From a virus (Duplodnaviria; Heunggongvirae; Uroviricota; Caudoviricetes), in the IMG/VR virus record IMGVR_UViG_2879770953_000004: DNA of 38,987 nucleotides, one strand, 5' to 3'. Position numbers: made by a program. How positions within the stretch are numbered: the first letter of the stretch is position 1; each line of letters begins with the position of its first letter. Below, in pieces: positions 3,674-6,600 of the stretch.

Positions 3674-6600
3674 TGACGCTCATCACGCAGTTGTTTGACC
3701 CATCTTGTCATTGTGGAAAGGCCAACATCCATAGCTTTGGCGGCATCTGCCACCGTGTATTTCTGGTCAACAACCAGTTGAGCGGATTCGCGTTTAAACT
3801 CTGCGCTAAAATTTCTTTTTTTCATTGGAGCACCTGTGTTGTTCTGAGGTGAGCATATCACCTCTGTTCAGGTGGCCAAATTCAGTGTGCCACTTCATGA
3901 GTCCAGGAAGTTCTCTGTGAAGGGTCTTGTCAGTCCTTTATATTGGGTGATTACAACTCATTGATGAATAAGGGTTTTTCTACAAGCTATCAACTGGATA
4001 GCTTGATGTGACCAACTGAAAGATACAGCTTTCCGGCTTTGTCAAGAGATTTCACTACCCACCAGCTAAAAATATTTCAGAGGCGGGAGTGATTGGAGGT
4101 TAGGATGGGTCTTTGTGGTTGTCTTCACGGCCTCTGTCCTTCAGGTCAAACGACCATTCTCGACCGAACAACCGAAACACGATGAACACCCTGACAATGA
4201 CATAGCGAAGTAGTAAGCCTGCGAACAGACCCACACCCCCACCAGCCCATAAATCAGATGACCCCAATTCTTGAGGGAGGTTAAACATTCAATGTACCTT
4301 CTGTGTGCAATGCAAAAACATGTGACCAAATACATAGCCACGCTTCATATTTCCCCCTCTCTCATAAACCCATTATACCACAAATGTTACGAAATTGTTA
4401 CGTAAATGCTTGACATTAATCCTTGAAAATGCTAGTATTGTATGTATTTAGTTAACAGAATAATAACATTCCATAAGGGTCAGAATATGAATGAACGACA
4501 GAGAATTTCAAAGGTTTCTTGAAGAGAGTAAGGCAAGAAACAAGCACAACTCCTACGCTTACACAAACTCCCCCACCAGCTACGAACTGCCAGCCTTTTC
4601 CAAAACCGAACGTAAAAACATTGAAGCGCTCATTCGTAGCATTACGCCACGGGTAAGACACATGCCAACACGCAAAGAAAAAGAGAACACTTTAAAGACT
4701 TTCCTGATGAGTTTTGATAGCTACGAACAATTACCATCACGAATTGAAGATATTATTATCGGCACTTGTCGCAGCTTTGGAAGAGATAATTATCACCGAA
4801 AAGTTTTCTATTTACTACGAAATATTGACAAGATTAGCTCAAGCACAATAACAAGTTATCTACAGCGTCAAGCGACCCGATTAAGCCATGAGCTACCAAG
4901 TGATAAATATTGCGCTAACTTAGCCACCATTTGCATGAAAGTTATTGAGACAATTAATCATCATGTGGAAGTGGGCAATATTAGCCTTACAACCAGTGAA
5001 CCAGATTTTGAATTTGACCCCTATATTTTGGAGGAATTTTAAAATGAATAAACACACTTTGACCCGTATTTCAGAAGAAGCTTTTCACGAGCTTACCCGA
5101 ATTAAACAGACAACTAACCTGCCTCATCAAACTATTATGCAGCTTGCAATTGCTAAAGAGGTCACTGAGTCGGATTTACTGAAATATCCAGTTTCTAAAG
5201 GTCGCAGACACATCAGAATTACTAAGAACGCTCTGGCTACTCTGAAGGAACTGAACAACTTTAAAATTGATATTGCCCGACTATTGAGCATCAAGATTCA
5301 CAAGCTATCGATGGGGGTTTAATGCTATGCATTACCTTTGAATACCACACAGATAAAATGATTCGCTACATCTCCGACCTCCTGATTAAAGGAAACGGAT
5401 TCGGTGACATCTTTAACTCAAGAGATATTTTCATTAAAGCCATTGGCCCAAATGAAACACTGAAAGCAGCAGTTAAACTGGAATGGTTTGAGCGTCACAA
5501 GATTGAATTAGGTTATTGGGGTGAGGAGGTTTTATGAAACCTTGGCATGAAGATGTTAGGCGATATTTTACAGAACACCTTACCTATGATGAATCCAGTG
5601 ATTCCCTGTGCTGGTCTGATGGAGAGTCGGTCACGATAAATACCGACGACTACGGCAACAAAACATTTAATATAGGTCGATACACATTCTATGTGAAATA
5701 TGTTGTCTGGTTCCTTTATCATGGCTATCAATCCAATAAGCAAATTATCCATCGAAATGGTAACAGAGCCGATACCAGACCAAAAAATCTTATGCAAGTC
5801 CGAGACTTTAAGAGAAATTAGAAAAACAGCTTCTCAGACGCTCTCAATCGCATTCTAACGCAAAAAACTACCTTATTTTAGGGTGGACCACTGTACAGGC
5901 TACCCCTGAAAAAGACTGTTTAGCTCGTTACAGAGCGATTGAGGAGGTCTGGTAAAAAGGAGATTTTAGGAAATGAGAGAATATGAATTACAGATTTTCG
6001 TTGATAGCGACACTGCTATGATGGTGCAAAGCTTCATTGATGCAGGTGTGGAAATTGATTTTGATAAATTACTAAAGCTGATGGCTGATAATGCAGAAAA
6101 CATCTCTGACTTTATTCAGTCGGTGGAGTTTAACGAGCCTCGAATGATGTTACCAATTACAGACAGTAATATGAAAAGATTGGTTATTGAGCAAACGAAC
6201 AAATACAGTATTTCCCCAGAGCAATTTTTGAAAGGTGCTGTGACAATCCTGTACAGCGATAATATTTTGGTTACGGATTCCGTGAGGGTTCACTAATGGG
6301 CTTAATAATTACTTGGACGTTGCTTGGCTTATTTGTTGGTTGCTGGGTGGGTAACACAGTAAATAAGAATTGATGTTATCAATATGTTAAAAGCTGTTGA
6401 CAAATAACCTTAAGCATGAGATGATGGTAATAGGGGGAGCAACTCTTCCTGAATTAAACTATTAATCATTCTACATCAATGATAGTTATTCTGAGTTGGA
6501 AAGGTGCAATGCTTTTCGTCATGGCCTATTTAGCCCACACTAGATAGGCTATCTCAAAAAGTCTTTGTTCATTCGTTATTGAATCCTTTGGATGTTCTTT

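Follow-up and report, generated by a model that had tools for sequence, protein, structure and literature searches.

What controls the operon that begins at position 4491 of a 38,987-nt stretch of viral DNA (Caudoviricetes; IMG/VR record IMGVR_UViG_2879770953_000004; the whole stretch is hereafter the window), and what is the role of the short direct repeat that stands in front of its promoter? An earlier note on this DNA had described a near-consensus promoter, TTGACA-N17-TAGTAT, immediately preceded by GTTACG-N5-GTTACG, and had taken the pair as a sign of strong but repressor-controlled transcription. Comparison with related loci indicates that promoter and repeat together are a real, conserved regulatory element. 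This element lies in the divergent control region of a small (~12-kb) island, and it is probably a switch that links the island to Felix O1-like phages, because these virulent phages carry the same box in a dense array of their own.

Phased TGTTA boxes at three predicted promoters

Direct reading of the window from position 4369 on (CCCATTATACCACAAATGTTACGAAATTGTTACGTAAATGCTTGACATTAATCCTTGAAAATGCTAGTATTGTATGT) bore out both elements named in the earlier note, and showed in addition a TG that extends the -10 of the rightward promoter, which we call PR.

4410-4438, plus strand: promoter PR as a whole, rightward, scoring 10/12 plus TG in a consensus scan
4410-4415, plus strand: PR -35, TTGACA, from the consensus scan and direct reading
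4416-4432, plus strand: PR spacer, 17 nt
4430-4431, plus strand: TG of the PR extended -10
4433-4438, plus strand: PR -10, TAGTAT
4386-4391 and 4397-4402 (4386-4402 as a whole), plus strand: two copies of GTTACG with N5 between them
4398-4405: palindrome TTACGTAA

PR has the attributes of a sigma-70 promoter of the extended -10 form, with a -35 near TTGACA, a spacer of 16–18 nt, TAnnnT and TG (TTGACA/17/TG-C-TAGTAT), and its transcription start is predicted at about 4444–4446. Taken alone, a PR-like promoter or a TGTTACG repeat is unremarkable against chance, because promoter-like sites are not enriched in the 12 kb scanned (24, against 28.2 +/- 5.0 in shuffles), TGTTACG is not overrepresented in the window (4 against 3.7 expected), and 7-mers repeated within 8–15 nt are themselves frequent there (40, against ~20 in shuffles). 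Seven sites in the same 12 kb score at least 10/12.

What sets the locus apart is its conservation. In an alignment of 13 diverged island copies (A1), to which more divergent Citrobacter copies were added later (A5), 23 of the 29 columns of the PR core are invariant across the 13 copies. These include the -35 (TTGACATTA), the TG and positions T1, A2, A5 and T6 of the -10, which changes solely at positions 3 and 4 (TAGTAT, TAGGAT, TAAGAT, TAATAT). In contrast, the start of the neighboring 62-residue open reading frame (ORF) averages a majority fraction of 0.58 per column and has no invariant column at all. A functional sigma-70 promoter would be expected to vary in just this way.

The repeat is conserved in a different form from that first described. 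Its conserved part is (A/T)TGTTA alone, and because most relatives read ATGTTAATAAAATGTTAAAAAATAC, neither the CG nor the palindrome belongs to the conserved unit; both are present in the window, whereas most relatives lack them (TGTTAAT or TGTTAAA). The functional unit that emerges from the alignment is TGTTA-N6-TGTTA, with an 11-bp period of one helical turn, rather than GTTACG or the palindrome. The bases flanking the boxes vary even inside one island (CG, TC, AA, TT) while the TGTTA cores are invariant; a recognized box is therefore favored over inherited similarity.

The paired unit is far rarer by chance than either of the features considered above. Exact copies of TGTTA-N6-TGTTA occur three times in the 39-kb window, against 0.07 in shuffles (0 of 200 shuffles reach three), and copies with at most one mismatch occur eight times against 1.94 expected (0 of 100 shuffles as high). 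All three exact pairs sit at the island's two promoters, PR and a second rightward promoter, P2, and the first of them overlaps a leftward promoter, PL:

4385-4400, plus strand: operator O1, boxes 4385-4389 and 4396-4400, exact match, upstream of the PR -35
4453-4468, minus strand: operator O2, inverted (TAACA-N6-TAACA on the plus strand), exact match, at ~+8 to +23 of PR
6374-6389, plus strand: operator O3, two TGTTA boxes, exact match, 7 nt upstream of the P2 -35
4372-4401, minus strand: promoter PL, with -35 GTAACA (4401-4396), an 18-nt spacer and TGgTATAAT (4380-4372), scoring 10/12 plus TG in the scan
6397-6425, plus strand: promoter P2, with TTGACA, a 17-nt spacer, TG (6417-6418) and GATGAT, from the consensus scan

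The divergent promoter PL, O2, the second promoter with its boxes (6374-6425), the 11-bp TGTTA unit and the match to the phage array all go beyond the earlier note.

In a survey of 20 related loci (1.8–19 kb each, ~230 kb in total; genera Escherichia, Shigella and Citrobacter) the exact motif was confined to the same three places. O1, which overlaps the GTTACG-N5-GTTACG of the earlier note, is present in 20 of 20 loci, with box cores invariant in both A1 and A5. O2 is exact in 19 of 20, the remaining copy being degenerate, and 11 of its 16 columns are invariant, including GTTAACAG. O3 is followed 7–8 nt downstream by TTGACA in nearly every related locus that is long enough; one locus (L017) has no exact copy of it. 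The three sites differ in what their positions suggest. O2, at ~+8 to +23, occupies a repressor-type position, and O1 and O3 are centered at ~-52 of PR and ~-50 of P2. Of the strong, repressor-controlled promoter that had been proposed, the constrained sigma-70 promoter and the conserved operator-like repeat survive; control by repression is not established. The ~-52 center of the upstream site is an activator or UP-element position.

PL and P2 carry the marks of constraint as well. PL fits the extended -10 sigma-70 form (GTAACA / 18 nt / TG-G-TATAAT); its extended -10, TGGTATAAT at 4380-4372, is invariant, as is CCATTATACCA in A1 and A5, and its -35 reads TTAACA in relatives. Box 2 of O1 and the PL -35 are the same bases, and O1 as a whole lies over ~-20 to -35 of PL, covering its -35 and spacer. 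By its position and direction, PL would transcribe the gene for the 62-residue protein. P2 likewise has the extended -10 form (TTGACA / 17 nt / TG-A-GATGAT), with CATAAT as its -10 in relatives; a further alignment (A4) shows no variation in its -35, its TG or positions A2 and T6 of its -10. Downstream of P2 lie the genes for a 234-residue protein, a 70-residue protein, a tape-measure protein and a Dit-like protein. PR and P2 share a layout of boxes, TTGACA and then ..CCTT.A..ATG.., and because this shared sequence extends beyond the consensus elements, the two look like paralogous, co-regulated promoters.

The overlap of O1 with PL raises the question of whether a dedicated binding protein is needed at all. 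Box 2 might simply be the PL -35, the A/T-rich phased DNA might act as an UP element or as bent DNA that boosts PR and P2, and the likeness to the phage array might be compositional. TGTTAA is indeed the complement of TTAACA, which matches five of the six -35 consensus positions at the correct spacing from the invariant extended -10 of PL, and the AAATGTTAAAAAATAC found just upstream of the -35 in relatives resembles a proximal UP subsite. What is invariant, however, is the cores and not the A-tracts, which the window and the Citrobacter copies exchange for CG. Box 1 of O1, the downstream O2 and O3, where no divergent promoter was found, are left unexplained, and composition-preserving shuffles yield only 0.07 pairs for the window and 0.56 for the phage genome discussed below, where 3 and 14 are observed. 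We consider this explanation improbable. IHF was rejected as a candidate at these sites: O3 in the window fits WATCAANNNNTTR, but the relatives and O1 do not.

A host protein would be another candidate, since an OmpR/PhoB-family response regulator of the winged-helix type, for instance PhoP, could bind the boxes and so make the island answer to a host signal. The Pho box reads CTGTCAT-N4-CTGTCAT and the PhoP box (T/G)GTTTA-N5-(T/G)GTTTA, and such boxes usually replace the -35. The window's TGTTACG-AAAT-TGTTACG, in which 4 bp of A/T-rich sequence separate two 7-bp boxes, has a similar layout, and the 11-bp period fits. The invariant core is nevertheless TGTTA and not GTTTA or CTGTCA, and the consensus -35 is retained where boxes of this kind would normally stand in its place. 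Nor would a host regulator account for the inverted O2 or for some 30 boxes in a non-coding region of a virulent phage. For these reasons we think that regulation by such a protein is very improbable.

A matching box array in Felix O1-like phages

The connection to phages rests on both genes and sites. The genes are the last two of those downstream of P2:

7864-9930, plus strand: tape-measure protein (Pfam TMP_3)
10104-10877, plus strand: Dit-like tail protein (Pfam Dit_like; also phmmer, tblastn and blastn)

PHROG 4036 and 3721 match this tape-measure/Dit-like pair. Over its full length the tape-measure protein is closest to those of Felix O1-like phages (29% identity), and the Dit-like gene shares 74% DNA identity with genes of Felix O1-like and Moogle-like phages. 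When the island proteins were compared by phmmer with all ORFs of one such phage, mio, only these two found a match, at 1e-77 (mio_90) and 1e-108 (mio_89), and mio_90 and mio_89 are adjacent genes.

The sites are the TGTTA boxes themselves. The mio genome holds 14 exact copies of TGTTA-N6-TGTTA, against 0.56 expected (at most 2 in 50 shuffles), 12 of them within positions 780-1520. In this region 32 TGTTA boxes stand in 1.2 kb, where we estimate that ~2 would be expected, and the spacing between boxes peaks at 11, 20–22, 31–33 and 42–44 nt; on the strength of these peaks the phage boxes, like those of the island, are helically phased. The array region is 1.65 kb of non-coding DNA on which two transcription units converge, and promoter-like sites are not enriched within it (8, against 5.0 expected). 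It is conserved at 78–94% identity in 256 Ounavirinae records, in nearly all of which it is unannotated, and Mijalis, a Mooglevirus and thus of another genus, is 79% identical over the array and keeps both the boxes and the 11-nt phasing.

The resemblance extends beyond the box. When the PR region was compared by blastn with the 83-kb mio genome, the best match aligned O1 with a triple box at 1494-1517 (21/24). Beside that triple box, mio 1542-1529 is identical over 14/14 positions to window 4397-4410 (GTTACGTAAATGCT), a segment that includes the palindrome, and the GTTACGTAAATGCT element is kept in Mijalis.

The array, at 450-1620 of the mio sequence (L021) and ~1790-2670 of the Mijalis sequence (L023), holds ~30 TGTTA(A/G) boxes, and several deposited genomes are opened inside it. 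An origin, a packaging site or a centromere-like site are candidate roles for it, and its function appears to be undescribed. The Felix O1 genome paper states that the temporal regulation of the phage is unknown, and does not mention the boxes (PMC3185647). Our full-text literature searches found no description of either the island or the phage box array.

A ribbon-helix-helix protein as candidate binder

The island itself offers a candidate for the protein that binds the boxes, in the operon that PR would transcribe:

4491-5042, plus strand: gene for a 183-residue protein, first of the PR operon (ORF)
5044-5322, plus strand: gene for a 92-residue tandem ribbon-helix-helix (RHH) protein, second of the PR operon (AlphaFold2 and Foldseek)

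The AlphaFold2 model of the 92-residue product, built from a 16-sequence alignment, has a predicted local distance difference test score (pLDDT) of 90.8 and a predicted template-modeling score (pTM) of 0.82. It consists of two beta-alpha-alpha units (E4-10/H11-24/H28-36 and E54-60/H61-70/H77-91), and its best Foldseek matches in the PDB are F TraY (9f0z), DndE (4lrv) and AvtR (4hv0), all of which are known single-chain tandem RHH DNA binders. The suggestion of the earlier note that this product might be the regulator is strengthened by the model and its fold matches, which make it a credible DNA-binding protein. Its strand residues H-T-L-T-R and H-I-R-I are invariant, like the box cores. Members of the family occur only in Escherichia, Shigella, Citrobacter and Salmonella, every one of them named hypothetical, and the sequence has no match among PDB sequences. 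A recognizable DNA-binding domain was found in no other island protein. The 183-residue protein was considered as a regulator and set aside: it has no family, PDB-sequence or fold match, and its AlphaFold2 model reaches a pLDDT of only 68.7.

A distant relative supports a link between the boxes and an RHH gene. In an island of Lonsdalea britannica (L038), TGTTA-N6-TGTTA-N8-TTGACATTA and an extended -10 stand directly before a 45-residue gene, whose product matches Pfam RHH_1 over the full length (E 6e-4; 20.1 bits, with a cut-off of 20.5). The same island has a large serine recombinase with 36% identity and a tape-measure fragment with 31% identity. Its region 1659-7575 holds the large serine recombinase, a small resolvase, the boxed promoter (5828-5880) and the 45-residue RHH gene (5916-6053); further along are an HTH_36 protein, a second small RHH-like ORF and an apparently fragmented tape-measure gene. 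A genome-wide scan for boxes plus TTGACATTA gave 43 matches, mostly chance occurrences in unrelated taxa; the true relatives among them are Citrobacter, E. albertii and Lonsdalea only.

Our preferred reading, to which we give about even weight, is an operator system of the iteron type through which helper-phage infection would govern expression of the island, with the island RHH protein as its most likely binder. Binding to short phased repeats at the protein's own promoter is established for the RHH class, with R1 ParR, omega, Arc/Mnt, CopG and TraY as examples. In the proposed system, one pseudo-dimeric monomer of the 92-residue protein would bind each TGTTA box, with cooperativity between neighbors. 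Occupancy of O2 would block PR and so provide negative autoregulation, occupancy of O1 would shut PL, and occupancy of O3 would set the output of P2 and with it the expression of the tape-measure and Dit-like genes. The operators would tie island expression to infection by the phage whose tape-measure and Dit genes the island copies; we draw this connection to Felix O1-like phages because the same box, in the same phasing, recurs some 30 times in a conserved non-coding region of these Ounavirinae. The analysis shows the sequence elements with their conservation and their non-random number and placement, the RHH fold and the phage array; the identity of the binder, the sign of regulation, the start sites and any response to infection are what we infer from them.

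Several observations weigh against this reading. The Foldseek matches have probabilities of at most 0.99 and template-modeling (TM) scores of 0.5–0.6, with E values of ~0.09, which are weak, and in searches of the 92-residue sequence against RHH models only DndE appeared, far below the cut-offs (E 0.08 in Pfam, 8e-4 in NCBIfam). RHH variants and box flanks do not covary in any consistent way; in the window an L001-type RHH protein occurs together with CG boxes of the L002 type, and in this respect the window looks recombinant. The O1–O2 spacing ranges from 65 to 68 bp among copies, which argues against a fixed looping geometry and makes a phase-locked loop between the two operators unlikely. 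O1 at ~-52 and O3 at ~-50 are not at classical repressor positions, and because P2 has O3 near -50 and no downstream site, simple repression fails to explain it. Other invariant non-coding motifs might be bound by the RHH protein instead, namely the block at 4301-4345, the two copies of the 9-mer GTGCAATGC and the inverted repeat ATTAA-N4-TTAAT. Finally, the phage has no detectable RHH homologue: tblastn found no homologue of either the RHH or the 183-residue protein in 50,697 phage records, and a profile search of six-frame mio ORFs found none. Whatever binds the phage array is therefore a different protein, which could equally act on the island.

That last point leads directly to a different assignment of roles, in which the TGTTA array is the target of a phage protein that also recognizes O1 and O3, at ~-51, so that PR and P2 would be on and PL off only during infection, and the RHH protein would have its target elsewhere. 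Such an array binder could function in replication, packaging or segregation. O1 and O3 stand at positions like those of class I activator sites, at two promoters, in the same orientation and 7–9 nt from the -35, and the island boxes match the phage array in sequence and phasing; a phage without an RHH homologue must use a binder of its own. There is a precedent in the late promoters of P4, which carry the Ogr/delta site of the helper P2 at ~-55. PR and P2, however, have a consensus -35 and an extended -10, for which an activator should be unneeded, and O2 at +8 to +23 suits repression rather than activation. The phage array, moreover, lies between convergent transcription units and not at phage promoters, and in the Lonsdalea relative it is an RHH gene that stands directly behind the boxed promoter. 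On balance we think a phage-encoded activator unlikely.

If the boxes are instead read by the RHH protein, as we prefer, the island might sense infection by mimicry. In uninfected cells the RHH protein on six TGTTA boxes would hold PR, PL and P2 low, and the phage array would titrate the repressor away, since each injected or replicated phage genome would bring ~30 phased boxes that draw it off the island; the tape-measure and Dit variants and a small membrane protein would then be expressed, and the phage array may itself be blocked by the RHH protein. This elaboration is speculative and, in our judgment, unlikely to be correct. If it were true, the island would represent an undescribed family of satellite or defense islands aimed at virulent Ounavirinae, with DNA-site titration rather than protein sensing as the trigger. 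If the link between island and phage is functional in any form, it offers a testable handle on how the island senses or attacks phages and on what the array does. Felix O1-like phages are used in Salmonella typing and in biocontrol and are considered for therapy, so that a common chromosomal element tuned to them would have practical relevance.

An RHH-controlled promoter with phased repeats is a familiar design; the setting is new. The closest design known to us is ParR-parC of R1, in which, as here, repeats with an 11-bp period stand on both sides of a sigma-70 promoter and the RHH-fold binder (here a candidate) is encoded in the operon that it would control, so that autoregulation is expected. 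The island differs in having 2 + 2 boxes with the downstream pair inverted, far fewer than the 5 + 5 of parC; it also lacks a ParM/ParA partner gene, its RHH protein is a single-chain tandem, and it is chromosomal and not on a plasmid. Searches of the island proteins against Pfam, PHROG and NCBIfam found no ParM/ParA-type partition NTPase, and because there is no NTPase partner, the locus is not a partition locus. F TraY and AvtR, the latter from an archaeal lipothrixvirus, are the best structural matches to the 92-residue model and also have two beta-alpha-alpha units per chain. Both bind repeated sites at promoters, and TraY binds upstream of its own promoter and stimulates it. In contrast, the 92-residue protein has no detectable sequence similarity to them, with 6–17% identity in the structural alignments, and no relaxosome or oriT context. 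Arc/Mnt is a further RHH design of similar kind.

Two observations concern the PR operon itself. Homologues of the 183-residue protein fall into more than 1000 clusters, all named hypothetical, and the product is 100% identical to a Shigella flexneri protein found in 104 contigs, by which the window is assigned to S. flexneri; no match to it was found in Pfam, PHROG, NCBIfam, PADLOC or the PDB. Its ATG (4491) is overlapped out of frame by an 11-codon mini-ORF with an ATG at 4487 (window 4487-4522), which is better spaced from the Shine-Dalgarno sequence AAGGG (4475-4479) than the 183-residue gene is. The ATGAATGA of this region is invariant in all relatives, and the mini-ORF may encode a leader peptide or serve in translational coupling.

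The island and its neighborhood

In its intact form in E. coli the island is ~11.7 kb long and splits yecE (DUF72) in two, with a 507-residue large serine recombinase at its end; other copies adjoin yciI, and a Citrobacter braakii copy has a tyrosine integrase in place of the large serine recombinase. The core runs from the 62-residue gene on the minus strand through the control region to the 183- and 92-residue genes and a variable slot, often filled by an HNH endonuclease. It continues with a 107-residue gene, the second non-coding region and the genes for the 234-residue, 70-residue, tape-measure and Dit-like proteins. The control region is present in 412 of 5426 complete E. coli genomes (~8%) at 70–97% identity, and the family also occurs in Shigella, Salmonella and Citrobacter. 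Only four IMG/VR contigs carry the island, all of them 25–55 kb, and none is a free ~12-kb unit, an observation that speaks neither for nor against transfer. Among the core proteins, only the tail-protein homologues, the HNH endonuclease and the recombinases bear a name other than hypothetical. No replication initiator, primase, packaging signal or small terminase was recognized by Pfam, PHROGs or NCBIfam among the island's proteins, several of which have no assigned function, and PADLOC defense-system models found nothing meaningful in the island.

Relatives of this island have an integrase and defined ends, as expected of a small integrated element, and some of its genes and sites match those of Felix O1-like phages, the presumed helpers. 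In these respects it resembles a phage satellite, and we do not file it as a proven one. Like P4 with its helper P2, it is a small integrated element that has a promoter element at ~-50 to -55 which is also found in the genome of the presumed helper. P2/P4 late promoters have an Ogr/delta site, TGT-N12-ACA, at ~-55 and no consensus -35, whereas the island has direct repeats rather than a dyad, a consensus -35 and no identified zinc-finger activator, and the phage copies of its box stand in a non-coding array between convergent units instead of at phage promoters. The PLE of Vibrio cholerae, which are switched on by ICP1 infection, are likewise chromosomal islands (12–18 kb) that have a large serine recombinase and are associated with a myovirus of strictly lytic habit. 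PLE and the island share no detected homologous genes, and PLE are not known to carry tape-measure or Dit homologues from their helper. The control region also recalls the Stl-str region of SaPI/PICI elements, since divergent promoters in front of the main operon would determine whether the island is silent. The island, however, has no leftward repressor gene: PL would drive a probable membrane protein of 62 residues, and the sole recognizable DNA-binding protein is encoded inside the rightward operon.

The copy in the window has decayed at both ends. Its left arm has been replaced by IS911, to which 3400-3897 is identical, and another insertion sequence (IS) has removed the N-terminal part of the recombinase. 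The remnant, the 62-residue gene and a block in the PL leader lie as follows:

10892-11755, minus strand: C-terminal remnant of the serine recombinase, a 287-residue ORF where relatives have a full-length protein of ~507 residues
4100-4288, minus strand: gene for a 62-residue protein, from ORF calling and translation, downstream of PL
4301-4345, minus strand: invariant block in the predicted PL leader, CTGTGTGCAATGCAA..CATGTGACC..CATAGCCACGC, with 31 of 45 columns invariant

The recombinase is truncated by an IS-like unit of two ORFs (11730-13003), a second copy of which lies at the right end of the window (37759-38987). In the Citrobacter braakii copy (L013, 2813-14546) the same core module and operators are accompanied by the tyrosine integrase on the left. 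Across the family the left arm carries variable cargo, including a Dam-type methyltransferase, an AP2/HNH protein, a small resolvase and genes without an assigned function.

The 62-residue product has a hydrophobic central segment and is likely to be located in a membrane. Its gene is annotated as a hypothetical protein in several relatives, its N-terminus is conserved at the protein level as read from A1, and it has no family matches in Pfam, PHROG, NCBIfam or PADLOC. Between this gene and PL, the invariant leader block contains a weak hairpin (4341-4322), into whose loop three relatives have a hairpin insertion of ~25–50 nt. Shuffled sequences fold as well as the predicted PL leader does (z = 0.69), and an Rfam search of the intergenic region gave no match beyond chance miRNA-like hairpins. 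A CRP site of the form TGTGA-N6-ACATA/TCATA (4321-4336) was considered and rejected, as its halves are split by the ~25–50-nt insertion in the three relatives.

The leader of P2 has features of its own. The predicted transcript runs ~340 nt before the 234-residue gene (window 6426-6768); its first ~130 nt are almost invariant in relatives and include ATTAA-N4-TTAAT at 6453-6466. Farther on is a long imperfect hairpin (6634-6747) with a chance-level miRNA-like match in Rfam, and relatives carry several insertions in the middle part of the leader. There are exactly two copies of the 9-mer GTGCAATGC in the window (4305-4313 and 6504-6512), each in an invariant non-coding block beside one of the two promoters; this count is not statistically significant on its own. 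As opposite strands are transcribed, the PL and P2 RNAs would be complementary over GTGCAATGC.

Upstream of the 107-residue gene, ~48 nt at 5905-5952 (CTGAAAAAGACTGTTTAGCTCGTTACAGAGCGATTGAGGAGGTCTGGT) are, by eye, ~80% identical to a sequence that in some relatives (L001, L005-L008) lies between the 62-residue gene and the PL leader block, and this segment may mark a module junction or a recombination site. A strong terminator-like hairpin of 13 pairs followed by a T-run (7736-7767) stands between the 70-residue and tape-measure genes and could attenuate expression of the tape-measure protein. Beyond the island, four tRNA genes (Met, Arg, Thr and Gly) at 17871-18180 separate it from a prophage-like region of higher G+C content (~20.3–36 kb).

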